From Myxococcota bacterium (GTDB taxonomy: Bacteria > Myxococcota_A > UBA9160 > SZUA-336): a DNA stretch of 64,000 nucleotides. The notes under the pieces are model-generated. The model saw only the letters and a program-made list of their open reading frames with translations. It searched no databases and was not told where the DNA came from. The stretch spans positions 283 to 64,282 of the forward strand of contig JBHHYV010000006.1 of assembly GCA_046757685.1 (NCBI GenBank), in the 5' to 3' direction. Made by a program: the position numbers and the translations under genes. Below are positions 5,421 through 28,259 of the stretch, one piece after another (the stretch's first letter is position 1; the number at the start of each line of letters is the position of its first letter).

Positions 5421-5461
5421 GCTCGCTGGCGACGGCATAGCATCGGCCGGGGACTGGAGCC

Positions 5462-6628: not shown

Positions 6629-6646
6629 ATCCGAGGGATCGAGAAG

Positions 6647-7891: not shown

Positions 7892-8469
7892 GGCGGGCTG
7901 TAGCCCTGGCGCTGGTGCCCCTCCTCTCGATCGCGCTGGGAGCCGGATGCCTGTCTCCTCGGAGCCGTCATCGTCTGCTCACGACGTTCTTCGACGGAGT
8001 GCCTCCGCTCGAGCGAGAGCTGCCCGAGGGAGCTGCGCCCCCACCCCGCGTCGCTTCGGTCACGCCCAGCGGGAGCCCGCGTCCCGCGGCTCCCGTGCTG
8101 CTGCTTCACGATCCATACTCGGATCGCGCCTGCACCGAGTGTCACGATGCGGATCGCTCGAACCGCCTGATCGACAAGGTCCCAGAGCTGTGCTGGAGCT
8201 GCCACGACGCCGAAGACTACGAAGGGAGCGTCACCCACGGCCCGGTGGCCGCCGGGCGCTGCCTGGCCTGCCACGATCCACACCGGTCGCCCAACGAGTC
8301 GCTTCTGGTGCGTGCCCCCGCCTCGCTCTGCACGGGTTGTCACGACCGGCAGACCTTCCCGGAGCTCGAGCGCCACCGGCAGCGCGAGGGCGCCGACTGT
8401 CTCGGCTGCCACGATCCCCATGCCTCGGACCACGACTACATGCTCGACCGTCCCTCGGGGTCGTCATGA
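7888..8469 (+). CDS. pentahaem c-type cytochrome lipoprotein
   Basis: Start taken at the internal ATG (MRRAVALALVPLLSIALGAGC, lipobox-like), which overlaps the upstream stop (ATGA). Five CXXCH motifs (CTECH, CWSCH, CLACH, CTGCH, CLGCH) and an FFDGVPP motif. Confidence 0.8.
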   Translation: MRRAVALALVPLLSIALGAGCLSPRSRHRLLTTFFDGVPPLERELPEGAAPPPRVASVTPSGSPRPAAPVLLLHDPYSDRACTECHDADRSNRLIDKVPELCWSCHDAEDYEGSVTHGPVAAGRCLACHDPHRSPNESLLVRAPASLCTGCHDRQTFPELERHRQREGADCLGCHDPHASDHDYMLDRPSGSS

Positions 8470-10469: not shown

Positions 10470-10477
10470 GGGTCCAC

Positions 10478-13269: not shown

Positions 13270-13426
13270 CTCGCAGTCCTCCAGGAAGGCCCAGGACGGT
13301 CCCCCGGCGAGGCATCCTGTCCCCGATGTGGCGAAACGACTCTCGAAGACCCAGAGCCTTGCCTCTGCGAATGACGCAACGCGCCGAGCGAGGCCGGCCG
13401 GTCGGCGCCGGTGGGCGTTCTGCGCG

Positions 13427-13443
13427 AGGCACGCGAATTGCAA
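13427..13443 (+). promoter_or_regulatory. candidate sigma-54 (-24/-12) promoter
   Basis: AGGCACGcgaaTTGCAA is a near-perfect match to TGGCACG-N4-TTGCW, with GG at 13428-13429 and GC at 13440-13441. It lies in the gap after 13269 and inside the 5' extension of track ORF 13411..14160. Confidence 0.6.
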
Positions 13444-13509
13444 ATCTGGCCCCGCAGTGGGCCTCACGGACCGGAGGACGGGACGGGGCGCCACGGCGCG
13501 GAGGATCGC

Positions 13510-14160
13510 GTGGAGAGCGAGAGGCAGCCGACGGCCGGGTCCGGAGACGGTGGCGCTGGCAGTCCGCCGCCCTATCAGCTCGCGACGTGGGCGCTGTTGG
13601 GCGTCGCGGTCGTGGTGGTGCTGGGGCTCCTCTCCCTTCGCTGTTCACTCGGCCCCCATACGCCGCGTAGCTACTCGAGCCGGACGCTTCCTGCCGAGCC
13701 CACCCCGCGCCTGCTCCCGCCGCCGGCCTGGGACGACTCGGAGTATCCGTGCAGCGATTGTCACGAAGACGAGCCGACGAACCGGACGGTACGGATGCTC
13801 GAAGAGGAGCATGACGAGCTCGAGTTCACGCACGGGAACATCTGGTGCCTGGACTGCCACGATGCAGACCAACGCGATCGACTCCACCTGGCGAATGGGA
13901 CTCTCGTCGATTTCGACGACTCCTGGCGGCTCTGCACCCAGTGCCACCCGCACAAGCTCGCGGATTGGAGAGCGGGAGTGCACGGCAAGCGGACCGGCAG
14001 CTGGTGGGGCACCAAGAGCTACCAGACGTGCGTGAGCTGCCACGATCCCCACTCCCCGCACTTCAAGCCTCTTGCGCCCAAGCCCCCTCCCCAGAGACCG
14101 GGCCAGATCGTTGCCAGGGCGCACGTACCGTGGGAGAAGCCCTCGAATGAAGGACGCTGA
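13510..14160 (+). CDS. membrane-anchored tetrahaem c-type cytochrome (NrfB/CbcS-like position)
   Basis: Start reassigned to GTG 13510, which has a GGAGGA 4 nt upstream and lies downstream of the sigma-54 motif. One TM helix (WALLGVAVVVVLGLLSL) and four CXXCH motifs (CSDCH, CLDCH, CTQCH, CVSCH). Confidence 0.75.
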   Translation: MESERQPTAGSGDGGAGSPPPYQLATWALLGVAVVVVLGLLSLRCSLGPHTPRSYSSRTLPAEPTPRLLPPPAWDDSEYPCSDCHEDEPTNRTVRMLEEEHDELEFTHGNIWCLDCHDADQRDRLHLANGTLVDFDDSWRLCTQCHPHKLADWRAGVHGKRTGSWWGTKSYQTCVSCHDPHSPHFKPLAPKPPPQRPGQIVARAHVPWEKPSNEGR

Positions 14161-15076
14161 CTCGACGGGCGTGCAAGGCGCGCACAGAGCCTCGCGCCGG
14201 AAGTTCCTGAAGGGCGCCGCAGCGGGCCTGGGTGCGCTCGCCGGTGTTCCGGCGGCTGCGCAGGCCTTCGACCTGGAGGCCTTCTTCCAGAAGCACTTCC
14301 GCCTGCTCTCGGACGAAGAGCTTGCCGAGACGCTGAGACGGCTGCAGCGCAGGTACTCCAAGCGCTACGGCAAGGAAGTGCGCGTGTCCGCCACCGGGCC
14401 CGTCGATGGGGTGGTCTTCGGCTACGGTCTCGACGTCTCGCGCTGCATTGGCTGCAGGCGCTGCGTCTACGCCTGCGTAGAGGAGAACAACCAGTCCCGC
14501 GATCCGGAGATCCAGTGGATCCGTGTGCTGGAGTTCGAGCGCGAGAAGGCGATCCGCCGCATCGATCTCGATGAGGGCAATCCCTACTACGACGCCGAGC
14601 AGGTCCCCGAACCGGGGAAGTTCTACCTTCCGATCGCTTGCCAGCAGTGCGAAGACTCCCCGTGCACCAACGTCTGCCCGACGGGTGCGACTTGGCGCGA
14701 GCCCGACGGGATCGTGGTCATCGACTACGACTGGTGCATCGGGTGCCGATACTGCATGGCCGCGTGCCCCTATGGGGCAAGGCACTTCAACTGGGGCGAG
14801 CCTCAGCTCGACTCGGAGGAGCTGAACCCCGATACCCACTTCCTGGGGAACCGGCCGCGACCCAAGGGGGTGGTCGAGAAGTGCACGTTCTGCATCCAGC
14901 GAGTCCGGAACGGGCGCTATCCAGCCTGCGTCGAAGCGTGTCCGGTCGGGGCTCGCAAGTTCGGAAACCTGCTCGATCCGAAGAGTGAGATCCGCTACCT
15001 GCTCGAGCACAAGAGGACCTTCGTCCTCAAGGCCGAGCTCGAGACCCGGCCCAAGTTCTTCTACTTCTACGGCTGA
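14147..15076 (+). CDS. Tat-exported 4Fe-4S ferredoxin-type subunit (NrfC/PsrB/HybA family)
   Basis: Twin-arginine signal SRRKFLKGAAAGLGALA. Multiple CxxCxxCxxxCP clusters (CIGCRRCVYAC, CQQCEDSPCTNVCP, CIGCRYCMAACP, CTFC...CVEACP). Confidence 0.85.
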   Translation: MKDADSTGVQGAHRASRRKFLKGAAAGLGALAGVPAAAQAFDLEAFFQKHFRLLSDEELAETLRRLQRRYSKRYGKEVRVSATGPVDGVVFGYGLDVSRCIGCRRCVYACVEENNQSRDPEIQWIRVLEFEREKAIRRIDLDEGNPYYDAEQVPEPGKFYLPIACQQCEDSPCTNVCPTGATWREPDGIVVIDYDWCIGCRYCMAACPYGARHFNWGEPQLDSEELNPDTHFLGNRPRPKGVVEKCTFCIQRVRNGRYPACVEACPVGARKFGNLLDPKSEIRYLLEHKRTFVLKAELETRPKFFYFYG

Positions 15077-15112: not shown

Positions 15113-16333
15113 ATGCGGAGCCTGCGGAGCTTCTGGAGCTTCATCGAGGGGAGCGCGTCGATCTTGCTTCGAGGGAGTCGCGCCTACTTCGGGTGGATCG
15201 CCTTCCTCGTGACGATGATCCTCATCGGGGGCGTCGCCTATGCCAATCAGGCGATCTTCGGCCTGATCACCTCGAATATGCGCGACCAGGTTTCCTGGGG
15301 ATTCTACATCGGGAACTTCGCGTTCATGGTGGGAGTGGCGGCGGCCGCGGTGGTGCTGGTCATCCCGGCCTACGTATACGATTGGAAGCCGATCCGAGAG
15401 GTGGTGCTACTCGGCGAGCTGATGGCAATCGCGGCAATCATCATGTCCGTTCTCTTCGTAACAGTGGACCTGGGTCGCCCGGAGCGCTTCTGGCATCTCC
15501 TCCCGCTCCTGGGAAACCCGAACTTCCCGTTCTCGCTTCTCGTCTGGGACGTTCTCGTTCTGAGCGCCTACTTCCTGATCAACTACTTCATCGTGACTTA
15601 CCTGCTCTACAAGGGGTATACCGGTCAGAAGTACAGCAGCGCCTTCATTCTTCCGATCATCTTTCTCTCGATTCCGCTCGCTGTCTCGATTCATACGGTC
15701 ACTGCCTTCCTCTTCATGGGTCTCAAGGCGAGAGGCTTCTGGCACACTGCAATCTTGGCGCCGCGCTTTCTGGCCAGTGCGTTCTGCTCGGGTCCGGCGA
15801 TCCTGCTGCTGATCTTTCAGGTGCAGCGGCGCGTCGGGACCATACCGATCTCGGATAGGGCCCTGCGGAAGATCGGAGAACTGATCGCCTACGCGCTGGC
15901 GGTGAACCTGTTCTTCGTCGCCGCGGAAGCGTTCACCGAGTTCTACGCTCTGAGAGCCGAGTCGATCCATGCCGAGCTCCAGTGGTTCGGGGTACCGGGG
16001 CGGAGAGACATCGCGTTCTACAGCTGGGTGTCCCTGGGGACCCAGATCCTCGCGTTCATCGGGTTCGCGGTCCCCGCACTCAGGAACCGTTTCGTGGTGC
16101 TGAACTTCGCCAGCGTTCTGGCGATCGTGGGCGTGTTCATCGAGAAGGGAATGGGCCTGCTGGTGCCCGGGATGACGCCCGACATGCTTGGGGAGGTGTA
16201 CTTCTATGTTCCCAGCATGAACGAGGTGCTCGTGGCGGTGGGCGTATGGGGAGTGGGTGCGCTGCTGTTCACGCTGATGTCGAGAGTAGCGATGGCGGTC
16301 AGCGATGGTAGCCTTCGTCAGCCGGCCAGTTGA
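15113..16333 (+). CDS. NrfD/PsrC-family polytopic quinol-interacting membrane subunit
   Basis: 406-aa protein with about 10 hydrophobic helices, immediately after the FeS subunit. N-terminal region typical of NrfD-like proteins (WGFYIGNFAFMVGVAAA). Confidence 0.85.
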   Translation: MRSLRSFWSFIEGSASILLRGSRAYFGWIAFLVTMILIGGVAYANQAIFGLITSNMRDQVSWGFYIGNFAFMVGVAAAAVVLVIPAYVYDWKPIREVVLLGELMAIAAIIMSVLFVTVDLGRPERFWHLLPLLGNPNFPFSLLVWDVLVLSAYFLINYFIVTYLLYKGYTGQKYSSAFILPIIFLSIPLAVSIHTVTAFLFMGLKARGFWHTAILAPRFLASAFCSGPAILLLIFQVQRRVGTIPISDRALRKIGELIAYALAVNLFFVAAEAFTEFYALRAESIHAELQWFGVPGRRDIAFYSWVSLGTQILAFIGFAVPALRNRFVVLNFASVLAIVGVFIEKGMGLLVPGMTPDMLGEVYFYVPSMNEVLVAVGVWGVGALLFTLMSRVAMAVSDGSLRQPAS

Positions 16334-16372: not shown

Positions 16373-17050
16373 ATGAGTGGGAGGACCGTCAGGCTCGCAT
16401 TGGGGGCTGCCGCACTGGGAGTTGCGTTGACGGCCTCCGCTGGAGTGAAGAAGGTCGTTCCTGAGCACAGATACGTCGGGGTAAAGAAGTGTCGGACCTG
16501 CCACAAGAAGGAGCTCATCGGAGACCAGTACGGAAAGTGGCGGGAGGGCGTGCACGCGAAGGCGCTCGAGACCCTGCGCGGGGACAAGGCGCGCGAGTTT
16601 GCCCAGAAGAAGGGCATCACCGCCCCGCCCTGGGAGAGCGAAGACTGCCTCAAGTGCCATGTGACCGCCTACGGAGTCGATGAGCGCTGGCTGCCCAGCC
16701 GGCCTCTCGATCCTGCGGACGGGGTTCAGTGCGAGTCGTGTCACGGCCCCGGTCACGACTACCGCAAGAAGAAGATCACGTCGAAGCACGAGACCGCCCT
16801 GAAGAAGGGCCTCTGGGAAGCGGGAAAGGACCCCGAGATCTGTACCCGCTGTCACAACGACGAGAGCCCGGCCTGGGATCCGAGCAAGTTCGAACGGGCC
16901 GACGGAACGACGGCCGGCTTCGACTTCGAGCTGGCCAAGAAGAAGATCCAGCACCCCATTCCCAAGGAAGTGAAGGGCCACTACATCGAGCTCGAGAAGA
17001 AGCAGCGGGCCAAGAAGCGAGCCCGCAGGGAACAGGAACAGGAAGAGTAG
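16373..17050 (+). CDS. secreted tetrahaem cytochrome, c554-like family
   Basis: Signal peptide plus CRTCH, CLKCH, CESCH and CTRCH. YVGVKKCRTCHKKELIGDQYGKWREGVHAKA is typical of the Cytochrome_C554-type fold. Lys/Glu-rich C-terminal tail. Paralogue at 26269..26928. Confidence 0.85.
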   Translation: MSGRTVRLALGAAALGVALTASAGVKKVVPEHRYVGVKKCRTCHKKELIGDQYGKWREGVHAKALETLRGDKAREFAQKKGITAPPWESEDCLKCHVTAYGVDERWLPSRPLDPADGVQCESCHGPGHDYRKKKITSKHETALKKGLWEAGKDPEICTRCHNDESPAWDPSKFERADGTTAGFDFELAKKKIQHPIPKEVKGHYIELEKKQRAKKRARREQEQEE

Positions 17051-17202: not shown

Positions 17203-17469
17203 TCAACGCGCTTTCGGCCCGTGGGCCGGGTTCGCGTCCTCCGGCGGCGCCCCGCGGTGCAGGCCGATGAAGACGTAGGTCAGTGTGCCCGCGACGGTGA
17301 GGTAGACGGGTGTCATCACCAGGCTGATGGCCAGGGTCCAGTTGAGCGCATCGTGCCAGCGTGCGGCTACGGAGATCAGCCAGGGTACGAAGATCAGAAT
17401 GGCCACCGCGAAGAGCCACATGAGGGAGATCGAGAGAAACTGGAGCGCAGTGATCCACTTTCGATACAT
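17203..17469 (-). CDS. small hydrophobic membrane protein (88 aa), last gene of the Qrc/ACIII-like operon
   Basis: This is the tail of track ORF 17203..17766. The ATG overlaps the NrfD stop (ATGA). MYRKWITALQFLSISLMWLFAVAILIFVPWLISV... suggests 2-3 predicted TM helices. No family recognised. Confidence 0.5.
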   Translation of the reverse strand: MYRKWITALQFLSISLMWLFAVAILIFVPWLISVAARWHDALNWTLAISLVMTPVYLTVAGTLTYVFIGLHRGAPPEDANPAHGPKAR

Positions 17470-18851
17470 CAGCTCGCTCCCTCGGGAAGCGGCCCGGAGG
17501 CCGGGGGATCTTCTGGGGCGTCGTCTGGCTGATAGCTCGCGACCCGCTCGCTGGTCTCCCGCACGGCCGCCTCGCGTCCCTCTTCGATCTCCCAGATCGA
17601 GATCAGCGGGAAGAACTTGGCGAAGAGCATGAAGGCCAGGCAGAAGACCGCCAGGGCGGCGGCAAGAAGGCTGATCTCGGTGAGAGACGGCCAGTACGCG
17701 TGCCGAGGGAAGTCCGCGAAGGGAACCGAGAGCGAGGGAACGACGATGATCAGACGCTCGATCCACATTCCCACCACGATGCCGATCGACACCAGCAGGA
17801 TCACCGGGATGGTCCGCGTCTTGCGCCGAGAGAGAAGAGAGACGGGCACGACGAAGTTCAGGAAGATCATCATCCAGAACGGAATCGCGTAGGGCCCCGT
17901 GAACTTGAACATCATCACCGAGAGTTCAGTGGGCTCCTGGCCGAAGAATCCCGTCAGGTACTCGGAGAAGGTCAGGTAGAACCAGATGGCCGACATGGCC
18001 AGGAGCAGCTTCGAGAGGTTCGCGAAGTGGACCTGCTTGAGGTAGCCCTCCAGGTGGTAGACCTTCCGGAAGACGATCATCACCACCAGCAACGCCGCGA
18101 TCCCCGAGAAGATGGCGCCGGCGACGAAGTAGGGACCAAAGATGGTGCTGTGCCAGCCGGCCTCGAGGGTCATGGCGAAGATGTAGCTGATCACTGTGTG
18201 GACGGAGACGGCGATGGGGATGACCAGGATCATGAGCAGGTTCATGGCGCGTGACAGGACGTGAACCTGGCGCGGCGTTCCCTGCCACTGCCAGCTCAAG
18301 AAGTCGTAGAGCCAGTGGGGGCGGACTCCGCGGTCTCGCAAGCGCGCGATGTCGGGGATTAGAGGCAGGTAGAGATACACCGTGCTCGCCGCGAAGTACG
18401 CGGTGATGCTCATCACGTCCCAGAGTAGCGGCGACTGGAGGCGGCCCCACTTGAAGATGTTGAGGATCCGGTCGGGGCGACCCAGGTCGATGATGGGATG
18501 AAGGCCGCCGATGGCCAGAACGATGGCGGTGATCACCTCGGCCATGCGGGTGATGGGGCGACGCCACTCGGCCTGGTTGAGGCGCAGGATGGCCGAGATC
18601 AGGGTGCCCGCGTGGCTGATGCCGATGAAGAACACGAAGTTGATGATGTAGAAGCCCCAGCTCACGGGCTCGTTCATCCCGGTCTCGCCGAGGCCGAGGA
18701 AGAACTGGCGCAGGTAGCGGTAGACGCCGAACAAGATGATCGCGAGCAGGACGCCAACGCCCAGGTAGAAGCCCGGGCCGGTCTGCTCGATCGGGCGGTA
18801 GAGCGCCTCGTCTTGGCCCGGTGCTGGCGACCGCTGACCCTCGTCAGACAC
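17469..18851 (-). CDS. NrfD/PsrC/ActC/QrcD-family membrane subunit
   Basis: GTG start at 18851 overlaps the upstream FeS gene end. Polytopic membrane protein with NEPVSWGFYIINFVFFIGISHAGTLISAILRL, typical of NrfD-like quinone-site subunits. Confidence 0.85.
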   Translation of the reverse strand: MSDEGQRSPAPGQDEALYRPIEQTGPGFYLGVGVLLAIILFGVYRYLRQFFLGLGETGMNEPVSWGFYIINFVFFIGISHAGTLISAILRLNQAEWRRPITRMAEVITAIVLAIGGLHPIIDLGRPDRILNIFKWGRLQSPLLWDVMSITAYFAASTVYLYLPLIPDIARLRDRGVRPHWLYDFLSWQWQGTPRQVHVLSRAMNLLMILVIPIAVSVHTVISYIFAMTLEAGWHSTIFGPYFVAGAIFSGIAALLVVMIVFRKVYHLEGYLKQVHFANLSKLLLAMSAIWFYLTFSEYLTGFFGQEPTELSVMMFKFTGPYAIPFWMMIFLNFVVPVSLLSRRKTRTIPVILLVSIGIVVGMWIERLIIVVPSLSVPFADFPRHAYWPSLTEISLLAAALAVFCLAFMLFAKFFPLISIWEIEEGREAAVRETSERVASYQPDDAPEDPPASGPLPEGAS

Positions 18852-19569
18852 GGCGCTCCCTTTCGTCCAGATAGAATACAGCCGGCCCGGTGCCGAGCTC
18901 CTCGAGGAACCGGTGGGCGCGCGGGCTCCGGGCACTCTCTGCCACGGGGCTGTCCGGATCGGCCAGGTCGCCGAAACGCATCGCCTTGGCCGGGCACACC
19001 TCGACGCAGGCGGGCTGGTAGTCCTCCTCACGCACGTCACGGCCCTCTACGGCGGCGTCGTCCCGCGCCTTCTGCAGGCGGTGGTAGCAGAAGGTGCACT
19101 TCTCCACGATGCCCCGATAGCGCAGCGAGACGTCCGGGTTCGTGTGGGCGCGTAGCGCCTCGGGAAACTCGTAGTCGAACCAGTTGAAGACCTTGACGGT
19201 GTAGGGACAGGCCGCCATGCAGTAGCGACAGCCGATGCAGCGCGGGTAGATCTGGCCCACGATCCCGTCGGTGCCCTTGTAGGTGGCGTGCACGGGACAC
19301 ACCATGGTGCAGGGCGCCTTCTCGCAGTGGTAGCAGAGGAGAGGATAGAGCCGAACCAGGGCGCGGTCTCCCTCGCCCTCCTCGTGCCGCAGGACGCGGA
19401 TCCACTGCATCACGCGTCCGCTCTGCGCCTGGCCGGGAGGCACATCGGGGATATTGTTCTCGGACTTGCAGGCCGCGACGCAGGCCGCGCAGCCGGTGCA
19501 GCGATCCAGGTCCACCACCATTCCCCAGCGCCTCGGCCGTAGCTCCGAGCTCGTCCCAGCTTCCGCCAT
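18844..19569 (-). CDS. 4Fe-4S ferredoxin-type subunit (PsrB/QrcC/ActB2-like), no own Tat signal
   Basis: RWGMVVDLDRCTGCAACVAACKSENN, CYHCEKAPCTMVCP, CIGCRYCMAACP and CTFC...CVEVCP cluster motifs. Confidence 0.85.
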   Translation of the reverse strand: MAEAGTSSELRPRRWGMVVDLDRCTGCAACVAACKSENNIPDVPPGQAQSGRVMQWIRVLRHEEGEGDRALVRLYPLLCYHCEKAPCTMVCPVHATYKGTDGIVGQIYPRCIGCRYCMAACPYTVKVFNWFDYEFPEALRAHTNPDVSLRYRGIVEKCTFCYHRLQKARDDAAVEGRDVREEDYQPACVEVCPAKAMRFGDLADPDSPVAESARSPRAHRFLEELGTGPAVFYLDERERRV

Positions 19570-19584: not shown

Positions 19585-21786
19585 TTACGCCTTCTCGAGA
19601 AAGACCGGAATCGGCCCCCAGGTGGGTGCCCCGGTCGTCGCGTCGAAGAGCGCATAGGGAAGCTTCAAAGGGTTGCCACCGACCCTCTCGGTCACGACGC
19701 CCGGCGCCGAGAGACCGAAGCCCAGGGGCGCCGCCACGGAGCCCGGCGTGATGCTGCGCGTCACCACCACCCTGGCCTCGATCTCCGCGCGCGGACCTCG
19801 GATCTTGACCCGATCGCCGTGAGACATCCCCCGAGAGTGGGCATCGATGGGGTGCAGCTCGACCCACGACTCCCAGAGCACGCCGTGGGGCATTCCAGCA
19901 ATCTCCATCAGCATCGGTCGGTCCAGGACGCGCCCGCCCCGAATGGCCGGTCCGTCAAAGGGTACGAGCCAGAGCTGACGCGGCGCGAGCGCAGGAGGTC
20001 GGGCGGGCGGAGAGGACGTGACCGCTTGCCCGGAGGTCCGCGCAGCCAGCGCGCGCTGGGGCGCCAGCCACATCGCCTCTCCCGAAAGCAGCTCGCGCTT
20101 CGCAGTCTTTGCATCGACCTGTGCCAACGCGTTGCGCTGGGAGCGCTCGACCAGCTCGCCCTGCCCACGTCGCACCACGACGTCCACTGCCTTCTCCACG
20201 AGCCCCTGCATGGTCGGGGCTGGAGGAGCGAATCCGGGGCCTGCAGATCCTGTCTTCGCGAGATCGAGCAGAACGTCCTCGGGCGCGCGCGCTTCGACTA
20301 CCGGCACCATGGCGGGACGCTGAACCTGGAGCGCCGCATCGGGCACCCCCCACGCCGGCGAGGGCAGATCCCAGGACTCCAGATCCAGGAGCGTCGGTAG
20401 GGTCACGTGCGAGAGCAGCGCCGTATGAGTCTCCCGCGAAGCGAAGGTCGCCACGAAGGGCACGTGGCTTATGGCGCGGGCGATCTGGTCCTGCCCCGGA
20501 AGCTCGTGAACCAGGTTCGCCTCGATGCAGATCAGTACGTCGACGGGTGAGCGGCGGATCTCGAAGAGAGGCTGGAGGATCTCGGGGAGGCCGCCGTCCA
20601 GCGCGCCCCCCGACTCCCCCAGTGAGAGCGCGCGGGCCAGGTCGTCGAGCGGATCGCTGGCCCAGGAGAGTCCGCCTCGCTCTCGGAAGCCGCCAGTCCA
20701 CAGGTTCAGGGCCAGGGCTGCGCGAACATCGGCCGCGCCGTCGACCCGGCGCAGGAGCGCCGGACCGGGTAGCACGACTCCCGGGGCGAAGCGGCGCAGT
20801 GCGCGAGCCGCGAGCTCGAGCTCGCCGGCGCGCAGGCCCAGGTTCTCGGGTGCAAAGCGGCGCGCGAAGGTGATCGGGTCCCGGGCCTCGGGAACCCAGC
20901 GAGCGTAGCGGGCGAGAGTTGCAGAGCGCTGCGGATGCCCCTCGCTCAAGGTCTGGGCGAGACCCAGCAGGATGTCCCGCTCCTGGCCCGGAGCGCTGGG
21001 GATCCAGGCGTCGCTCTTCGCTGCGGTCGCTCCCTGGCGTGGGCCCAGGTAGAGCGTCGGTGCGGCGCCCGTGTCCGGATGCTCGCGTCGCTCGCCGTGG
21101 GCGCGCATCTGGGAGACGGGACTGCCGTCCACGTCCAAGAGCTCGTCACCCACCAGGAGCAGGGTTCCGCTGTGCGCGAGATCTACGCGCAGCCGTCCCT
21201 TCTTCGCCCCGCCGAAGAACTCGCCGGCCAGCTGGTCCAGCGCTCCTTCGACACGGAGCGGGATGTAGCGCGCCCCGGGGATCGAGCGTACCCAGGTTTC
21301 GACGAGGCGGGTTCCCAGGGAAGGGGTGCGCCCATCCACGACCGCCAGGCGATCTCCGGCCCCTGCGGCCACCAGCTTGCGGAGCTGCCCTCCAAGCAGA
21401 CCGAGGGCTTCTTCCCATGCAGCCGGGTGGCCTTCCGCCCCGGCATCGCTGCGCACCAGGGGTGTCGCCAGGCGCAGAGGATCGAAGAGCGCCTGCATCT
21501 GGGACTGGCCGGCGGCGCACAGCGAGCCCTGGCTCGCGGGATGCCAGGGAGTCCCTCGCAGTCCGACCGGGAGCTGGTCGATCTTGCGCAGCGAGAGCGA
21601 GCAGTGGTTCGGGCAGTCGCGGCAGACGCTCCGCGAGAAGCTCTCCAGGCCCGGGCCGCGCACGTCCTGGAAGCTGAGTCGGTCGACCGCATACTGGTGC
21701 AGGCGGTCGAGGAGCCAGTCGCCCCCCGACGCCGAGACACCCGCGGCACCGAGCGACTTGAGGAAGGTCCGGCGAGAGAGGGCCAT
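19585..21786 (-). CDS. Tat-exported molybdopterin-oxidoreductase-family large subunit (PsrA/QrcB/ActB1-like)
   Basis: Start taken at the internal ATG with the twin-arginine signal MALSRRTFLKSLGAAG. N-terminal Cys motif CRDCPNHC...(x24)...C (CxxCxxxC...C). About 730 aa. No in-frame stop. Confidence 0.8.
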   Translation of the reverse strand: MALSRRTFLKSLGAAGVSASGGDWLLDRLHQYAVDRLSFQDVRGPGLESFSRSVCRDCPNHCSLSLRKIDQLPVGLRGTPWHPASQGSLCAAGQSQMQALFDPLRLATPLVRSDAGAEGHPAAWEEALGLLGGQLRKLVAAGAGDRLAVVDGRTPSLGTRLVETWVRSIPGARYIPLRVEGALDQLAGEFFGGAKKGRLRVDLAHSGTLLLVGDELLDVDGSPVSQMRAHGERREHPDTGAAPTLYLGPRQGATAAKSDAWIPSAPGQERDILLGLAQTLSEGHPQRSATLARYARWVPEARDPITFARRFAPENLGLRAGELELAARALRRFAPGVVLPGPALLRRVDGAADVRAALALNLWTGGFRERGGLSWASDPLDDLARALSLGESGGALDGGLPEILQPLFEIRRSPVDVLICIEANLVHELPGQDQIARAISHVPFVATFASRETHTALLSHVTLPTLLDLESWDLPSPAWGVPDAALQVQRPAMVPVVEARAPEDVLLDLAKTGSAGPGFAPPAPTMQGLVEKAVDVVVRRGQGELVERSQRNALAQVDAKTAKRELLSGEAMWLAPQRALAARTSGQAVTSSPPARPPALAPRQLWLVPFDGPAIRGGRVLDRPMLMEIAGMPHGVLWESWVELHPIDAHSRGMSHGDRVKIRGPRAEIEARVVVTRSITPGSVAAPLGFGLSAPGVVTERVGGNPLKLPYALFDATTGAPTWGPIPVFLEKA

Positions 21787-21793: not shown

Positions 21794-22393
21794 CTACCTG
21801 TGGCACAGCAGGCAGTCGACGCCTGCTCGTGGGTTTCCACTCTTGAGATGACAGCTGATGCAGCGCTCCATCCCAGAGGGACCGTTGAAGTCGATGTAGG
21901 GCCGCGAGAAGGGCACCTCGCGTTTGGCAACCTCTCCGTGACAGGTCTCGCACAGAATCTTGCCTGCCTTCACGTGGCGCCGGTGGGAGAAGTGCACGTA
22001 CTCCTCGAGCTTGTCCACGCGCTTCCAGGGGATCGGCTCGCCCTTCTCCAGGAACGCGACGAGCTTGGCCTCCTCGGGGTTGTCCCCGATGGCCTCCTCG
22101 TGGCAGTCCTCACAGACGTCGCCCGAAGGGATGGTGGCGTGGTCGGAGTCCTCGGCACCCTCGTGGCAGTCGGTGCAGGGGATCTCCTCCTCGGCTACGT
22201 GGATCTCATGAACGTAGGCGATGGGCTGCTCGACTGGGAGGCGTGCGGAGCAGCCGAGCGCGAGGAGACCGGCCAGACCCGCGATCCCCAGGACGGCTGC
22301 GCGGCGGAAGGCCCCCGATTCCGCGATCTCCGCGACTGGCGGTGAGGCGAGCGTCGAAGCGGCAGGGACGAACCAGACCCTCCGGACTCTCAC
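21794..22393 (-). CDS. pentahaem c-type cytochrome lipoprotein (ActA/QrcA-like)
   Basis: GTG start. Lipobox-like LLALGC. Five CXXCH motifs (CTDCH, CEDCH, CETCH, CISCH, CLLCH). FSHRRHV...CETCH is c3/c7-like. Confidence 0.8.
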   Translation of the reverse strand: MRVRRVWFVPAASTLASPPVAEIAESGAFRRAAVLGIAGLAGLLALGCSARLPVEQPIAYVHEIHVAEEEIPCTDCHEGAEDSDHATIPSGDVCEDCHEEAIGDNPEEAKLVAFLEKGEPIPWKRVDKLEEYVHFSHRRHVKAGKILCETCHGEVAKREVPFSRPYIDFNGPSGMERCISCHLKSGNPRAGVDCLLCHR

Positions 22394-22401
22394 CCAAACA
22401 T

Positions 22402-22429
22402 CTCTTCTGCGGTCACCTCTTCTGCGGTC
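22402..22429. repeat. tandem perfect 13-bp direct repeat (CTCTTCTGCGGTC x2, 2-nt spacer)
   Basis: Copies at 22402-22414 and 22417-22429, 9-36 nt upstream of the GTG start (22393) of the minus-strand pentahaem gene. Confidence 0.7.
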
Positions 22430-22453
22430 TGCGCGAGACTTTCAGCGTTCACG

Positions 22454-22486
22454 CCGAGTCTCCGGTATGACGTCTATCATACTCGG
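22454..22486. promoter_or_regulatory. imperfect palindrome in the divergent intergenic region
   Basis: CCGAGTctccgGTATGAcgtctaTCATACTCGG. The right arm TCATACTCGG is the reverse complement of CCGAGT..GTATGA with a 5-nt insertion. The patch is locally AT-rich. Confidence 0.25.
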
Positions 22487-22787
22487 CGGGTCAGGTCGTG
22501 GCCCGGCTCCGCTGGGGCGAGTTCCCGACCGTCGCTTTCGCTGCGGCTCGCCCACCCTCCAGCTGGGCTCCGAGGCGTCGCTCCCGGTTCATCGAGAACA
22601 CCCTTGCGTCCGTGACGCCTCTCTCTGCTCGAGTCCCACGAACCGCGGAGGTGCCTCTCGTGCTCCGCCGCCTGCATCGGTACTCGCTCGCTCCGTGGCT
22701 TCGTCGGTCGGTCCCTGGGGGTGGGGCGCGATGTCGCGGCTCGGGACAGCATTGGCCGATGAGTTCGGCCTCGGCCGCAGCGAGGGA

Positions 22788-22805
22788 GTTTCAACGGAAT
22801 GAAAC
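22788..22805. promoter_or_regulatory. perfect 6-6-6 palindrome GTTTCA-N6-TGAAAC upstream of the decahaem gene
   Basis: Read directly from the sequence, 43 nt upstream of the GTG at 22848. The regulator is unknown. Confidence 0.3.
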
Positions 22806-22847
22806 CTGCTAGAGTGCAAGTGCGCGAGCTTTTGGGGAGGGATTGGC

Positions 22848-23843
22848 GTGAGGGGTAGAGATACATCGACTTCCGCCACCGGGAGCGCGGGTCGCCTTCG
22901 GGTCAGGGCTCGCCGCGTGGCGAGTGTGGCGCTTCCGATCCTCACTCTGGCAGCGATCGTCGCTTGTGTGACGGCTTGGCCGACGACCGTCCCCGAGCGC
23001 CTCCACCGCATCGCGAACGTTCCGGGGGCCCAGGCCGTGGGCGCGGAGGAGTGCGGCACCTGCCACGAGGACATCGAGGGACACGCCCCGATCCCCGCCT
23101 ATCACTCGGACTGCGAGGCGTGTCATGGGGGCGGCAGCCTTCATGTCGATAGCGAGAAGCCCGCCGACATCCGGTTCCCCACCGCGGACGACTGCCTGAG
23201 CTGCCACGAGAAGGGCCGCACCACGCACATGGACTTCGCCACGGGGGAGCACTCGCGCGCGGGGCTGATCTGTGCGGACTGCCACAACCCCCACAACCGA
23301 GAGCCGCACCACGTGCGGGTTGTCCAGGCCGTCTCCTTCCCACAGATGGAGCCGAACTCGAAGCTCTGCATCGGATGCCACGCCGATGTGGCGGCGCGCC
23401 TGCACTACCCATCCCATCACCCGGTGGCCGAGGGCATGCTCTCCTGCATCGATTGCCACTCTCCCCACGAGGACCGTCGGGCTGCGCTCGGCGACAAGAC
23501 GCAGCTATGCGCAGGCTGCCACCAGGATCACGTCGGTCCCTGGATCTACGAGCATCCACCGGTGACCGAGGACTGCATGATCTGTCACAACCCGCACGGG
23601 ACCGCCGCATTCAACCTGCTCGAGACCAACGTCCCCGCGATCTGCCTCTCGTGTCATACCCCTGCGGACGATCCACACCTGCTCGAGACCGGGGATCCGG
23701 CCGCGGCGACGATCACAACGGACGCGCCGACGCTACCTGGACAGAGGATCACGGCGCTGGGGGCGTCCGCTGTCTATACACGCTGCACCGATTGCCACGG
23801 AGCGATTCACGGATCGATGCAAGACCACCATCTGTGGAGGTGA
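22848..23843 (+). CDS. decahaem c-type cytochrome, MtrA/DmsE/PioA/MtoA family
   Basis: 331 aa with exactly ten CXXCH motifs and a family-typical C-terminus (RCTDCHGAIHGS). The N-terminal signal ends in a lipobox-like IVAC. The start codon is uncertain. Confidence 0.85.
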   Translation: MRGRDTSTSATGSAGRLRVRARRVASVALPILTLAAIVACVTAWPTTVPERLHRIANVPGAQAVGAEECGTCHEDIEGHAPIPAYHSDCEACHGGGSLHVDSEKPADIRFPTADDCLSCHEKGRTTHMDFATGEHSRAGLICADCHNPHNREPHHVRVVQAVSFPQMEPNSKLCIGCHADVAARLHYPSHHPVAEGMLSCIDCHSPHEDRRAALGDKTQLCAGCHQDHVGPWIYEHPPVTEDCMICHNPHGTAAFNLLETNVPAICLSCHTPADDPHLLETGDPAAATITTDAPTLPGQRITALGASAVYTRCTDCHGAIHGSMQDHHLWR

Positions 23844-23848
23844 GATCA

Positions 23849-26143
23849 ATGGCGTCGAAACTTGCGGGCACGATCGGGTGGGTCGTCGTCGGGCTGTGGG
23901 TGCTGCCTTCCGCGGCGATGGGCGATGGGGATTCGTCGCTTCGCTGGTCTGCGACCAGCGAGATGCGGTTCACCGACATCCGTGCGCCCTCCGACGAGGA
24001 CTTCCGCACCGGCTTCCTGGACAAGTACCAGTTCAGCGCGGACAAGAACAACCAGTTCCCGTTCGAGATCGCGCTCAGCCGCGCGGCCCTCGACTGGTTC
24101 GGGGCCGCCGAGACCCCGCGCATCCAGTTCCGCTTTCGGAGCCCCTCCTCGGACCTCTCGGTCTCGGGCGACGGCCCCTCGACGGGGGAGTTCTTCCTGA
24201 GCCAGCGCGGCGACCTCTTTGCGCGTTTTCCGGGCCTGGCGGCGGACTTGGTGTACCGGCGCAGCCGCATCGACGAGCTGCGCCTCTTCACGAATCCTAC
24301 GGGTCTGGGGAGCGCCCCCTTCACGCTCTTCAATGACGGCACGAGTGGTCGGCGCCGCTTCTTCGTCCGCCGCGAGCAGGTGGGAGGTGCGATCCACCTG
24401 AGACCCTGCGACCTGCTCTGCGACCAGCCGAAGGGCTGGCTCTCCGAGCTGAACCTGAGGGGCTCCTGGGAGGATCGATCGGGTCGGCGACAGCTGCGCT
24501 TCATGCTCGGCGGCGGCGACCTCATCGGAGGGGGCGCCCAGACCAGTCGCTGGCGCGCGGTCGAGCAGGATCTGGACCAGCAGTCCGTGAAGCTCGGCAG
24601 CAGCCTGGTGTTCTCTCCGGGCGGCCTGTTCACCCTGGAGCTCGCCTTCGATCACGAGCGCTTCCGCAACCGCTCCGGTCCCTTCCTGCAGAGTCAGCTC
24701 ACGGCCATGGACTCCAATATCGACTCGGCGTCGGGCGTCCTGGGACTTGGCGCGGGAACCGCGGGCCTGCAGACGCTGGGCTTCATTCCCGAGACGAGCC
24801 GGAGCACCGGTACGGCGCGTTTCCAGACCCGCCTCTGGGACCGCCGCATCGCGATCCACGGAGGGTTCCAGCTCAGCAAGCTCAAGCAGATCGGTAAGCT
24901 CTCGCCCCTCCAGAACCTGGCCGGGCTCGATCGCAACAACATCTTCTTCTACTCCGGGAATCTCGCCGCCAGAGGCCGGATCACCGAGATCGCCTCGGTC
25001 AACGCGTTCGTTCGCTTCGACAATCGCCGCAACCGGATCGACCGCTCGACGGTGCTCTTCAACTCGAGGGATACGAACTTCAACACCCAGTTCGACCCCT
25101 TCGTGGCAGGGCTGCGGAACATCGATACCGGCGCCGAGATCGTCCTCAGGCCGGTCCGGGCCTTCCGCTTCACCGTTGGAAGCCGCGCCCACTTCACGAA
25201 TCGCGCCCTCGACTTCCTGGACAAGCCCCTGTCGAGTGAGGGCATCCTGCCCTCGGTGACCGTCATCGACGACGACACCGTGACGTACACGGTCTACGTC
25301 AAGTCGAATGCGCGACCGATCTCGGGTCTCAATCTCTCGAGCGAGCTGGGGCTGCGCGAATCGCCGAAGACGGGCTACATCCGCGAGCTCGACGACGTGC
25401 GCTACGGGAAGGGACGCGCCTCCTACGCGCTTCCACTGTCCCGTCCCGTGACTCTCAGCGCCTTCGCCAACGGAGAGCGGGGCGAGAACAACGACTTCAA
25501 GATGCTGGGCGAGACCGCGGGGACCAGAGATCGAGGCTTCGACCAGGTGCGCTACTCCTACGGGGTCACGCTCACCGGCTCGCCGACCGATGAGCTCTCG
25601 CTCTTCGGGAGCTTCTTCCAGTCTCGCGATGCCCAGGACTTCAATCTCGTCCGGGCCACGATTCCACGCATGGATGGAAGGGACCCGACCGTCCTGGACC
25701 TCGACTTCTTCATCGATGCGCCCCTCGAGTTCCGGACGGACCAGACCAACCTGGTCATCGGCGGGAACGCCCAGCTGACTCGCCAGGCCAGTGCCAACGT
25801 CTACTACTCGTTCACCCGCTCCAAGTCGCGCTTCGACTCGATCAATACGACGTCAGCGACCATCGCGAATGCCAGCCGGATTCGCAGCGATATCCAGAGC
25901 ATCGGGACGGGGCTCAGCTTCCACCTCCGGGACGGTGCGGATCTGTCGCTCGGCTATCGCTACGACGCCTACCACGACCGTGCCGGGGTCAACGGGTCGG
26001 CCGGCTCTGCGACCCCCTTCCGGCTCTCGACCGGACGCCACTTCGTTACGCTGGGCGTGACGCTGACGGACGAGTTCTTCGGAGGCAAACCACCGCCGGC
26101 GGGCACTGCGAGAGCCGGGGGTCGCCGTCTCGCGCTGCGCTGA
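23849..26143 (+). CDS. putative MtrB/PioB-like outer-membrane beta-barrel
   Basis: The ATG is 5 nt after the decahaem stop. Signal peptide ...VLPSAAMG, 764 aa, no Cys, rich in Gly/Asp/Arg/aromatic alternating segments. Size and position match decahaem-associated barrels. Family not verified. Confidence 0.6.
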   Translation: MASKLAGTIGWVVVGLWVLPSAAMGDGDSSLRWSATSEMRFTDIRAPSDEDFRTGFLDKYQFSADKNNQFPFEIALSRAALDWFGAAETPRIQFRFRSPSSDLSVSGDGPSTGEFFLSQRGDLFARFPGLAADLVYRRSRIDELRLFTNPTGLGSAPFTLFNDGTSGRRRFFVRREQVGGAIHLRPCDLLCDQPKGWLSELNLRGSWEDRSGRRQLRFMLGGGDLIGGGAQTSRWRAVEQDLDQQSVKLGSSLVFSPGGLFTLELAFDHERFRNRSGPFLQSQLTAMDSNIDSASGVLGLGAGTAGLQTLGFIPETSRSTGTARFQTRLWDRRIAIHGGFQLSKLKQIGKLSPLQNLAGLDRNNIFFYSGNLAARGRITEIASVNAFVRFDNRRNRIDRSTVLFNSRDTNFNTQFDPFVAGLRNIDTGAEIVLRPVRAFRFTVGSRAHFTNRALDFLDKPLSSEGILPSVTVIDDDTVTYTVYVKSNARPISGLNLSSELGLRESPKTGYIRELDDVRYGKGRASYALPLSRPVTLSAFANGERGENNDFKMLGETAGTRDRGFDQVRYSYGVTLTGSPTDELSLFGSFFQSRDAQDFNLVRATIPRMDGRDPTVLDLDFFIDAPLEFRTDQTNLVIGGNAQLTRQASANVYYSFTRSKSRFDSINTTSATIANASRIRSDIQSIGTGLSFHLRDGADLSLGYRYDAYHDRAGVNGSAGSATPFRLSTGRHFVTLGVTLTDEFFGGKPPPAGTARAGGRRLALR

Positions 26144-26268
26144 GCCCCTCGAGTCCCGATTCCTGCTCGTGGAGCGCGGTCTTGCGGGGCTGACAGGAGC
26201 ATGCTGAATGGATCTCCAGGCTCGAAGCTCGCCTCGGGGGCTCGCTCTGCCGAGGGGAAGGAGGCCGG

Positions 26269-26928
26269 ATGAGGATGGGCGCGACGGCGATGGTGTGTGC
26301 TGCAGGTGTGGTCGCGATCCTCCTCGCGGGCCCTGCTCTTGCCGCGGAGGGGGCGCCGGCCAAGTTCGTGAGCGCGAAGAAGTGCGCGACGTGCCACAAG
26401 AAGAAGCTGATCGGGAACCAGTACGGGGCATGGCAGCGCTCGGCTCACGCTCGAGCCTTCGAGGACCTGTCGACCGATCGCGCGCGTGCAGTCGCAGCCA
26501 AGGTGGGAGTGAAGGGCGACCCGGCCCAGGCGCCCCAGTGCCTGGAGTGCCACGTGACGGGCTACGGGGCGGGGCCGGAGGCCTTCCTCAAGGGGGCTCT
26601 GGTTCTCGCCGAAGGCGTCGGCTGCGAGAGCTGTCACGGCGCGGGCCAGAACTTTCGCAAGAAGTCGATCATGTCGGACCTGGAGCTGGCCAAGTCGAAG
26701 GGCCTGCGGATTCCCGAGGACGCGGATTGCCGGGTCTGCCACAACGAGAAGAGCCCGACCTGGGATGAGAACCGCTACGTCCTGGCCTCGGGAAAGCACG
26801 TAGGCTTTGACTTCGATCTCGCCCGCAAGAAGATCGCCCACAAGATTCCGGAAGACGTCAAGGGTCACTACGTCGAGATCGAGAAGAAGCTGAGGAAAGA
26901 GAAGAAGCTGAGGGAGAAGGGCCGGTAG
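26269..26928 (+). CDS. secreted tetrahaem cytochrome, c554-like family (paralogue of 16373..17050)
   Basis: GGAAGGAGG ribosome-binding site and a signal peptide. Four CXXCH motifs (CATCH, CLECH, CESCH, CRVCH). Collinear with 16373..17050, including ...GFDF(E/D)LA(K/R)KKI.H.IP..VKGHY(I/V)E(L/I)EKK and a Lys/Glu tail. Confidence 0.85.
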   Translation: MRMGATAMVCAAGVVAILLAGPALAAEGAPAKFVSAKKCATCHKKKLIGNQYGAWQRSAHARAFEDLSTDRARAVAAKVGVKGDPAQAPQCLECHVTGYGAGPEAFLKGALVLAEGVGCESCHGAGQNFRKKSIMSDLELAKSKGLRIPEDADCRVCHNEKSPTWDENRYVLASGKHVGFDFDLARKKIAHKIPEDVKGHYVEIEKKLRKEKKLREKGR

Positions 26929-27359
26929 TCCGGGGAGCTGAGGGTGAGATCCTGCGCCTGGCCTCGGAGCCCTGCGAGCCTCTCCCGGGCGACTGCCGCA
27001 GCCTCGTCGATCCGTTCGACGTCGTAGGTGTGCGCGACGAAGACCTCGCGCAACCGGATCTCGCGGGGAACCGGCTTTGCGATCGCATGCCGTTCACTCA
27101 TGTGGCAGGTCGTGCAGACGGCGACCCTCCTTCCAGAGGCCCGCTTTCCGCCCATCACACTCAGGCTGTACGCGTCGAGAATCTCCTCGTGACAGACCCC
27201 ACAGAACCGGGGCGTGACGAAGGGATCCGCCTTCTCGAATGCCTCGGGAGGCAGGTAGAGCAGGGGAGCGAAGAAGAGGACGGCACTGAATACGCTCAGG
27301 AACCCGAGTGCAACCGCAACGTCCTCCAGAACGAAGTCGGGAAAGAAGCGCCGGGGCAG
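26868..27359 (-). pseudogene. cytochrome b C-terminal-like segment fused to a dihaem c domain, out of frame with the upstream cytochrome b fragment
   Basis: My translation of the frame shifted relative to 27296..27778 gives LPRRFFPDFVLEDVAVALGFLSVFSAVLFFAPLLYLPPEAFEKADPFVTPRFCGVCHEE...VAVCTTCHMSE. The FFPDF...ADPFVTP part resembles the cytochrome b/subunit IV helix E region and is followed by two CXXCH motifs. There is no ATG/GTG/TTG before 27158. Confidence 0.5.
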
Positions 27360-27778
27360 CCCGTGAAGCAGAGACCGAGCGTCGTGAAGAGCAGAAGGCA
27401 GCCCGTCAGCCAGTGGAGCTCCCGGGGCCGCTTGTACGATCTCATCGCGACCACGCTCAGCATGTGCAGGAGCAGGACGATCATCATGGCGTTGGCGCCG
27501 TGCACGTGAATCAGCCGGATGAGCCAGCCAAACGGGATCTCGTGCATGATCCGCTGGATGCTCTCGAACGCGTGCATCGAGTCGGGAACGTAGTAGATGA
27601 GCAGCAGAATCCCCGTCGCGATCTGCAGCGCGACAAAGACCAGGAGGACGAAGCCGAGCGAGTACCAGCGGTTCGTCGTCGCGGGAACCAGGTAGTCGAT
27701 CAGCTGGGTGCGAACCAGCCGGCGAAGCCCGGTTCGTTCATCCAACCAGTCGACGAGCCGGCTACGCCGGTCGGACAA
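27296..27778 (-). pseudogene. cytochrome b N-terminal fragment (helices A-C only)
   Basis: WYSLGFVLLVFVALQIATGILLLIYY, then helix B with the His-x13-His pair (LIHVHGANAMMIVLLLH), then ELHWLTGCLLLFTTLGLCFTG. After that, the expected YLLPWDQ and the helix D His pair are replaced by an unrelated 20-aa tail and a stop. Confidence 0.6.
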
Positions 27779-28259
27779 CGATCTTCCCCTGGCGGACAGC
27801 GACCGCGAAGCGCGGCAGGGGAGCTGGGGGAGGCCCGCCGAGGACTCGCCCGTCCGGGGCGAATCGACCGCCGTGGCAAGGGCAGAAGAAGATCCGCCGG
27901 CTCCGCTGCCACTTCACGACGCACCCGAGGTGGGTGCAGACTCCGGAGAGGGCATAGATCCGGTCGGTCGTTCGCATGACGAAGGCAGGGCGGCCGCCTA
28001 CGAGCACCCTCACGGCATCCCAGAGTCGGGCCTGGTCCGCCGGGATCTCGATCCGACCTCCGAGCTCTCCACCTCCGGTCGGGGTGAGATCACGCAGGGT
28101 CGGTAGGCACCCGACCGCAAGCCCCACGCCCGCTACGACACCGCCGTCTCGCGGGCGTCTCGCCGTGTCGGCAGCGCTGCGTACGGCCCTCGCAGGAGCG
28201 CCGTCGCGGTACCGAGTAGACTCGAAATCGAGGCCGGGATCAAGGGCCGCAGCTCGCAC
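27762..28259 (-). CDS. Rieske [2Fe-2S] protein
   Basis: CTHLGCVV...CPCHGGRF Rieske boxes (CxH...CxxH). Overlaps the start of the cytochrome b fragment by 17 nt. Confidence 0.85.
   Translation of the reverse strand: MRAAALDPGLDFESTRYRDGAPARAVRSAADTARRPRDGGVVAGVGLAVGCLPTLRDLTPTGGGELGGRIEIPADQARLWDAVRVLVGGRPAFVMRTTDRIYALSGVCTHLGCVVKWQRSRRIFFCPCHGGRFAPDGRVLGGPPPAPLPRFAVAVRQGKIVVRPA

Follow-up and report, generated by a model that had tools for sequence, protein, structure and literature searches.

With a probability of about 75%, the genes at 22848–26928 encode an Mtr-type porin–cytochrome conduit across the outer membrane. They lie in the 64,000-nucleotide stretch of a Myxococcota contig that was analysed here (JBHHYV010000006.1; hereafter the window). 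The conduit would consist of a predicted lipoprotein with ten c-type haems (decahaem) and an MtrB-like β-barrel, complemented by a c554-like tetrahaem cytochrome as the shuttle to quinone complexes of the inner membrane. Judged by sequence profiles and structure models, the decahaem–barrel pair belongs to a diverged, putatively lipid-anchored, and poorly annotated branch of real Mtr-type conduits and is probably not an orthologue of PioAB/MtoAB. The original prediction, made from the DNA letters and their translations, had described a two-component conduit of the MtrAB/PioAB/MtoAB type. Its core, an MtrA-like decahaem with an MtrB-like barrel and no MtrC, stands, but the PioAB/MtoAB identity is not supported, as MtrC varies within the clade and the decahaem, in a rough tree, groups apart from betaproteobacterial loci with strongly PF11854-matching barrels. 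The features are collected in Table 1.

Anatomy and homology of the decahaem–barrel pair

The ten CXXCH motifs of the decahaem start at C69, 89, 116, 142, 174, 200, 221, 243, 266, and 313. The protein has 21 cysteines in total, and the one outside the haem motifs is C40 of a lipobox I-V-A-C. The C-terminal part (...CTDCHGAIHGS...) carries the CHxxxHGS motif. The gene starts with GTG, and a GGAGG Shine–Dalgarno sequence is located 7 nt upstream. A public gene call places the start 23 codons downstream, which gives 308 residues; the 331-residue start is kept because the shorter one drops a charged n-region that is present in all homologues. The TGA stop (23841–23843) is separated from the ATG of the barrel gene at 23849 by a 5-nt spacer, GATCA, with GGAGGTGA directly before it, and the barrel gene has its own Shine–Dalgarno sequence. 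The protein length, the exact haem count, the C-terminal motif, and the 5-nt gap to a 764-residue barrel candidate are thereby all reproduced from the original prediction.

Among named family models, the decahaem scores best with NF041028 (GSU2203 family, 208 bits, cut-off 325). It matches the solved MtrA (6r2q_A) with an E-value of 1.2e-24 in phmmer, the N-terminal half aligning weakly. Its AlphaFold2 (AF2) model is of moderate confidence (predicted local distance difference test, pLDDT, 71), and MtrA is the sole hit in the PDB at E≤0.001 (Foldseek E 1e-8, target template modelling score, TMt, 0.54). More than 1698 homologues are found, and ten CXXCH motifs are present in 116 of the 120 homologues compared.

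The signal peptide takes on an Arg-rich n-region and a 16-residue hydrophobic core that runs into the lipobox (...RLRVRARRVASVALPILTLAAIVAC followed by VTAWP...). The lipobox cysteine is kept in 118 of the 120 homologues, most commonly as LAAC and with V or A in the +2 position, and in 16/16 loci of the clade that contains the window (clade I, see below). In the sister clade (clade II) and in most of the remaining clades, AxA-type sites take its place, with the exception of Geobacter-type nine-haem proteins and a few others. Between the lipobox cysteine and the first haem lie ~25–32 residues (about 28) with a conserved W-x-P... that is followed by H/R-R. By its conservation, the lipobox is a signature of clade I and not a quirk of one gene. 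The lipobox-like IVAC that had been flagged earlier is thus present, but as an oddity of this gene it does not hold. MtrA and MtoA are soluble periplasmic proteins with a type-I signal peptide, whereas the signal of the window decahaem ends in the lipobox. A literature search on lipidated MtrA or a Myxococcota Mtr clade yielded survey tables only and no description of either.

The barrel has a signal peptide that ends in ...PSAAMG before DGD. Contrary to the earlier description as Cys-free, it contains two cysteines, C187 and C191 (CDLLC). They are not conserved (relatives carry zero to four) and form no haem motif. An N-terminal CXXC motif is reported for MtrB of metal-reducing Gammaproteobacteria; the cysteine pair of the window barrel is not N-terminal, so the motif is missing here.

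The evidence for an MtrB-like barrel comes from its predicted fold and from profile comparison. Word-indexed searches with the barrel alone, or with a 63-sequence profile, return one relative only. An exhaustive HMMER search of 1.84e9 representative proteins recovers 160, among them 69 at E≤1e-30. The AF2 model, built from an alignment of 63 full-length family members, displays 26 long strands (pLDDT 89.2, predicted template modelling score, pTM, 0.86), in line with the barrel prediction that had been proposed as a check. Its top Foldseek hit in the PDB is MtrB (6r2q_B, E 5.7e-23, TMt 0.68). Ten orders of magnitude behind (E ~1e-13) follow 22-strand TonB-dependent receptors; a reading as TonB-dependent receptor or generic porin was rejected, given TM ~0.33 compared with 0.68 for MtrB. 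When close relatives of the window barrel are aligned with PF11854-positive betaproteobacterial barrels in hhalign, the probability is 97% (E 8e-11, 388 columns). PF11854 is matched at E<0.01 by 30/63 family members. Two close relatives score near the threshold of 23 bits (L003 23.3, L010 21.7), a Thiobacillus locus scores 71.9 (L018), and the betaproteobacterial locus L039 reaches 498. On the basis of model and profiles, the barrel is a remote MtrB homologue with MtrB architecture, on a branch outside the reach of the curated models.

Past its last strand, the barrel continues into a basic tail of 24 residues. Family tails mostly measure 5–7 residues with a maximum of 18, which makes this one the longest seen; the closest homologue ends 5 residues beyond the last strand (...LNSDAFQ). 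Residues 753–764 have a pLDDT below 50 in the AF2 model, and the tail is lineage-specific and probably disordered. An assembly or frameshift error was considered as its origin and ruled out, as contigs of two other runs from the hydrothermal-vent metagenome study that is the source of the sequence independently reproduce the decahaem–barrel junction, the tail, and the stop without indels. A search for RNA runs gave none. The basic tail to which the original prediction drew attention is present in the DNA, but it is not conserved and is predicted to be disordered.

The distribution of the decahaem was surveyed in one genome per GTDB species, which returned 79 loci. In every locus with enough contig (about 25 related loci), a barrel of the window's family comes directly after the decahaem, so that the tight two-gene unit recurs. 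The nearest decahaem loci belong to metagenome-assembled genomes (MAGs) labelled Gemmatimonadota, Myxococcota/Myxococcales, “Deltaproteobacteria,” and “Spirochaet*,” with no isolate among them. In a rough neighbour-joining tree of the decahaems, built without named MtoA, PioA, or MtrA references and without support values, clade I comprises the window and 15 loci. Clade II contains Thiobacillus, Gallionella, and Methyloglobulus together with gammaproteobacterial MAGs. Both clades stand apart from the betaproteobacterial loci with strongly PF11854-passing barrels (e.g. L039) and from Geobacter-type loci.

A variant of the barrel is seen in two gammaproteobacterial MAGs and one Gallionella MAG, where an open reading frame (ORF) of ~1200 codons follows an MtoA-like decahaem (L022 10738–14340, L024 10696–14367, L025 10798–14418). 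An N-terminal PF10082 (BBP2_2) barrel (residues ~93–460; 304–323 bits in L025 and L022, the two scanned) is fused in frame to an MtrB-like barrel (residues ~481–1207). By its domain composition, the product would be a tandem double-barrel outer-membrane protein.

Partner cytochromes and the direction of electron flow

No OmcA/MtrC is encoded in the window: when genuine MtrC relatives serve as phmmer queries, the best match has E 7e-4 (12 bits), and no ORF approaches the cut-off of TIGR03507. The absence of MtrC that had been noted near the pair therefore extends over all 64 kb. Such an absence applies to the MtrC/OmcA type only. The surrounding island, which the original prediction had not considered, contains two 11-haem cytochromes and a second barrel 10–16 kb upstream. 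Five clade-I loci (L010, L014, L015, L016, L026) carry a gene for a ten-haem protein of ~750–800 residues directly upstream of the pair, and four of the five proteins have a lipobox-like cysteine, including those of L010 and L014. These two, the only ones scanned, are OmcA/MtrC (TIGR03507, 403 and 441 bits, cut-off 209). Because some clade-I members carry MtrC upstream, the MtrC-less state is a variable trait of the clade and no marker of PioAB/MtoAB.

The gene downstream of the barrel encodes a protein of 219 residues with a Sec signal and four CXXCH motifs. The product scores 76.6 bits with Pfam Cytochrome_C554 (PF13435, cut-off 20.8) and matches Nitrosomonas c554 (1bvb/1ft5, E 6e-15), which agrees with its earlier description as a c554-like tetrahaem. 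Orthologues adjoin the decahaem–barrel pair in L034, L012, L009, and L014, with varying orientation. The closest relatives have a different tetrahaem directly upstream of the putatively lipidated decahaem, namely L001 (3–695), with homologues in L002/L003 (L003 1292–2080) and in L007. A PEP-CTERM signal is recognised in the L001 copy (TIGR02595, 17.5 bits against a cut-off of 16). Its signal suggests that it may be an exosortase-sorted surface partner in the place of MtrC. Across these loci, the accessory cytochrome can be exchanged while the core pair stays the same, in agreement with the modular view of Mtr systems put forward in PMC8805035.

The window holds a second c554 paralogue (16373–17050), and the two score 201 bits with each other. 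Both proteins have a long C-terminal tail rich in Lys/Arg (...EKKLRKEKKLREKGR in the 16373–17050 protein, ...EKKQRAKKRARREQEQEE in the 26269–26928 protein), and each trails a different module, the former a DsrOP-like pair and the latter the decahaem–barrel pair.

In the proposed mechanism, the 26-strand barrel would enclose the threaded ten-haem cytochrome, whose haem chain would bridge the periplasm and the exterior. Through an acylated Cys40 and the conserved linker, the wire would be anchored by its periplasmic end in the inner leaflet of the outer membrane. Electrons would pass between this conduit and inner-membrane complexes that interact with quinones by way of the c554-like tetrahaem. 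Candidate partners are the divergently encoded Qrc-like complex and the DsrOP-like module with its own c554 paralogue. We infer the threading, the shuttle role, and the coupling to the Qrc-like complex, the last of these from its position.

The direction of electron flow is less certain. Uptake, with electrons drawn from soluble Fe(II) or from reduced minerals, is favoured at roughly even odds, and an outward flow onto soluble or chelated Fe(III), Mn, or humics appears somewhat less probable; what remains falls to bidirectional flow or another substrate. The lean toward uptake comes from the presence of clade II in Thiobacillus, Gallionella, and Methyloglobulus MAGs and from the vent source. 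Characterised Qrc and c554 pass electrons towards quinone, which also counts for uptake. A further reason is the neighbouring NHL/undecahaem cluster, which resembles uet (10.1101/2022.05.06.490989). The MtrC-less state fits a soluble substrate (PMC10734462) and is counted on the same side. Whichever direction applies, MtoA and MtrA may be functionally interchangeable according to the same source. A broader reading can be offered only tentatively, with the odds clearly against it as a whole. It holds that lipid-anchored MtrA and diverged MtrB form a separate, unannotated branch in uncultured bacteria (mostly Myxococcota/Gemmatimonadota), with MtrC, a PEP-CTERM tetrahaem, or nothing as exchangeable outer partner, and that electrons here flow inward via a c554-type shuttle to a Qrc-like menaquinone reductase.

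Alternative readings

Several results weigh against an Mtr-type conduit of the kind proposed. All three family models used for the check suggested in the original prediction stay below their curated cut-offs: the decahaem scores 167.6 bits with TIGR03508 (DmsE family, cut-off 192.2), and the barrel scores 16.1 with PF11854 and 17.7 with TIGR03509 (cut-offs 23 and 240). The barrel also remains far below NF041027 (GSU2204, 19.7 bits, cut-off 350). A search of PDB sequences with the barrel-family profile does not recover MtrB and returns weak generic outer-membrane barrels (Cir, TodX, Opa; E≥0.0035), which is why the homology of the barrel is argued from fold and hhalign. Lipidation and outer-membrane sorting of the decahaem are predicted from motif and conservation. 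The Qrc-like neighbourhood is not conserved among the relatives, so the coupling to Qrc is circumstantial. For an outward direction speak the MtrC of close relatives, the heterotroph-type flanking genes, and the Fe(III) reduction known in Myxococcota from Anaeromyxobacter (cited in 10.1101/2022.03.26.485925).

These last points bear on the most serious contender, which still falls short of even odds. The pair would be an outward, metal-reducing MtrAB-type conduit that has lost or never had MtrC and that delivers electrons to soluble or chelated Fe(III), Mn(III/IV), humics, electrodes, or the non-MtrC extracellular cytochromes 10–16 kb upstream. It draws on the upstream ten-haem genes of the same clade, of which L010 and L014 encode true OmcA/MtrC that are predicted lipoproteins like two of the three others, on the two 11-haem cytochromes of the window (one with a plain signal peptide), on the adjacent quinol-oxidising NrfD-family modules, and on the heterotroph-like flanks. 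The window itself, however, has no MtrC, and nothing ties the upstream undecahaems specifically to the 23849–26143 barrel. The sister clade occurs in MAGs labelled Thiobacillus, Gallionella, and Methyloglobulus, which are chemolithotroph or methanotroph genera. MtrAB alone, moreover, reduces dissolved Fe(III) and electrodes only (PMC10734462). The opposite assignment, as bona fide orthologue of the Fe(II)-oxidising PioAB/MtoAB systems, is unlikely. Two genes without MtrC from a vent environment would suit it, but the neighbour-joining tree separates the decahaem from the PF11854-strong betaproteobacterial loci, members of the clade with MtrC exist, and the decahaem is a predicted lipoprotein, unlike most decahaems of other clades, those of the PF11854-positive betaproteobacterial loci included. 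No PioC-like high-potential iron–sulfur protein is found among the ORFs scanned with Pfam and NCBIfam (MtoD and CymA were not specifically searched), and a c554-like tetrahaem is present instead.

Two further readings dispense with the wire or change its load. In the first, the decahaem would store or carry electrons in the periplasm while tethered to the outer membrane, and the barrel would be a large, unrelated porin that is co-transcribed by chance. The scores below the curated cut-offs, the weak alignment of the N-terminal half with MtrA, and a lipid anchor that alone could account for membrane association would all be consistent with this. It is nevertheless quite improbable in view of a strand number and best fold match specific to MtrB, the strong profile–profile homology to MtrB/PioB barrels, and the strict co-inheritance of both genes in the related loci. 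Least credible is a DmsEF-like module in which the adjacent molybdopterin-family and iron–sulfur (FeS) proteins act as a surface terminal reductase. Both are encoded divergently beside the pair, and the molybdopterin-family protein carries a signal for twin-arginine translocation (TAT) and counts ArrA and PsrA among its PDB relatives. The best family of the molybdopterin-family subunit, however, is QrcB at 233 bits, far above PhsA or ArrA (~77 bits), and the adjacency is not kept in relatives. The qrcABCD order with multihaem and NrfD integral membrane subunits marks an inner-membrane quinone complex; a DmsEFAB-like reading of these neighbouring genes was ruled out on the same grounds. The Mtr-type conduit with a predicted lipoprotein decahaem remains the preferred reading.

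The surrounding island and comparison with known systems

The pair is part of an electron-transfer island at ~4000–28300, whose G+C content is 0.63–0.68 compared with 0.70–0.72 in the flanks and ~70% in the window. Because relatives lack this neighbourhood, the ~24-kb island is considered lineage-specific, and its low G+C together with the unshared neighbourhood is compatible with horizontal acquisition. The Qrc-like operon is divergent to the pair. The start of its molybdopterin-family subunit is placed at MALSRRTF, the Met of the TAT signal, and the PDB relatives of this subunit also include ActB of alternative complex III (ACIII). In the intergenic region between both operons, scans for sigma-70 promoters, terminators, and Rfam families (22394–22847) gave no match. 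A tandem 15-nt direct repeat (CAYCTCTTCTGCGGT x2, 22399–22428) abuts the start of the QrcA-like gene, and a 13-nt repeat (TGCGCGAG(A)CTTT) is present at 22430–22442 and again at 22821–22833, close to either end of the region. The repeats could be operator sites or chance matches.

The ingredients of the NHL/undecahaem cluster farther upstream resemble uet of electron-uptake Tenderiales (10.1101/2022.05.06.490989) and NHL clusters of Desulfovibrio ferrophilus. Its barrel (8466–10469) was tried as a member of the 23849–26143 barrel family and rejected, with no hit at E≤1e-5. At the other end of the island, the cytochrome b gene breaks after ...LCFTG; the central part to be expected there is missing, and the sequence continues in a different frame that leads into a dihaem c domain (CGVCH, CTTCH). 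In other runs, too, contigs end near 27329 and 27381. A pseudogene, heterogeneity between strains, or a collapsed assembly could each explain the break.

Table 1. Features of the electron-transfer island in window coordinates
Feature	Position	Strand	Evidence or remark
MtrA-like decahaem c-type cytochrome, predicted lipoprotein, 331 aa	22848–23843	+	ten CXXCH, MtrA match
Signal peptide ending in lipobox I-V-A-C (Cys40)	22848–22967	+	motif and conservation
MtrB-like 26-strand outer-membrane β-barrel, 764 aa	23849–26143	+	AF2 fold, Foldseek, hhalign
C-terminal 24-residue basic tail of barrel	26069–26140	+	DEFFGGKPPPAGTARAGGRRLALR
c554-like tetrahaem cytochrome, 219 aa	26269–26928	+	PF13435
Divergent intergenic region, Qrc-like operon/conduit operon	22394–22847	.	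short repeats
QrcA/ActA-like pentahaem cytochrome, five CXXCH	21794–22393	-	NF041781 84 bits, below cut-off
QrcB-like molybdopterin-family subunit, TAT signal	19585–21786	-	NF041783 233 bits, cut-off 440
QrcC-like 4Fe-4S subunit	18844–19569	-	NF041782 281 bits, cut-off 400
NrfD-family integral membrane quinone-interacting subunit, start estimated	17469–18851	-	PF03916 118.6 bits
88-aa membrane protein			in qrcABCD-ordered operon
Second c554-like tetrahaem	16373–17050	+	paralogue of 26269–26928 gene
DsrP-like NrfD protein	15113–16333	+	NF045798 363 bits, above cut-off 350
DsrO-like FeS protein, TAT	14147–15076	+	DsrO model 191 bits, cut-off 200
Membrane-anchored tetrahaem	13411–14160	+	
Second conduit-like NHL/undecahaem cluster	4737–13269	+	
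Tetrahaem of second cluster	4737–5366	+	
NHL lipoprotein of second cluster	5462–6628	+	
11-haem cytochrome of second cluster	6647–7891	+	
5-haem lipoprotein of second cluster	7888–8469	+	
667-aa barrel ending RVRRDF, second cluster	8466–10469	+	no family hit
Second NHL protein of second cluster	to 11569	+	
567-aa 11-haem cytochrome, plain signal peptide	11566–13269	+	
Damaged cytochrome b	26868–27778	-	
Rieske protein	27762–28259	-	

When metagenomes are surveyed for iron cycling and electroactivity, Mtr, Mto, and Pio systems are identified with curated hidden Markov models (HMMs). Decahaems of the present branch are annotated as “DmsE family” or “cytochrome c3 family,” and the close barrel members are named “hypothetical protein” wherever the source gives a name. 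As the barrels also miss the MtrB/PioB cut-offs, such surveys probably call too few complete conduits in MAGs labelled Myxococcota or Gemmatimonadota. If inward flow through a c554 shuttle to a Qrc-like reductase were true, it would constitute an undescribed route of electron uptake from Fe(II) or minerals that is under-counted by marker-gene surveys. Mechanistically, a conserved lipid anchor on the wire would be a departure from the Shewanella model. The anchor could fix or orient the wire at its periplasmic end, which bears on the assembly and engineering of such complexes. The island brings together two unlike conduits, a pair of c554 paralogues, and three modules that interact with quinones within ~24 kb, which makes it a compact candidate for heterologous reconstruction.

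Compared with known systems, the divergent operon shares the order multihaem, molybdopterin-like, FeS, and NrfD subunit with Qrc and ACIII. It differs in that none of the four subunits reaches its Qrc equivalog cut-off, the cytochrome has five haems instead of six, and a second NrfD subunit and ActE are missing. The Geobacter proteins GSU2203/GSU2204 (NF041028/NF041027) provide the best named model for the decahaem and a weak hit for the barrel, and a lipobox is also present in the 9-CXXCH homologues of the Geobacter type. The window proteins score far below the cut-offs (325 and 350), however, and proteins of the Geobacter type differ by their nine CXXCH, against ten in the window decahaem, and by a linker of ~66 residues. 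By its description, GSU2204 contains CXXCH, but the barrel of the window lacks a haem motif.

With MtoAB of Sideroxydans/Gallionella and PioAB of Rhodopseudomonas, the pair shares the two-component arrangement without MtrC, and their barrels are likewise predicted to have 26 strands (PMC10654088). The companion in the window is a c554-like tetrahaem in contrast to PioC or to MtoD plus CymA, and its decahaem is a predicted lipoprotein from a separate tree clade that has relatives with MtrC. From Shewanella MtrCAB, the window differs by its missing MtrC gene, the conserved lipobox of the decahaem, and a barrel with ~11% identity to MtrB that falls under the PF11854 and TIGR03509 cut-offs. In the periplasm, a c554-like tetrahaem is the likely partner in the place of CctA/FccA, and the neighbours are Qrc- and DsrOP-like and not CymA. 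With the MtrAB core of Shewanella (6R2Q), the pair nonetheless has in common a ~330-residue ten-haem cytochrome with CHxxxHGS and a 26-strand barrel immediately downstream, and this core is the best PDB match in both sequence and fold for the decahaem and in fold for the barrel.

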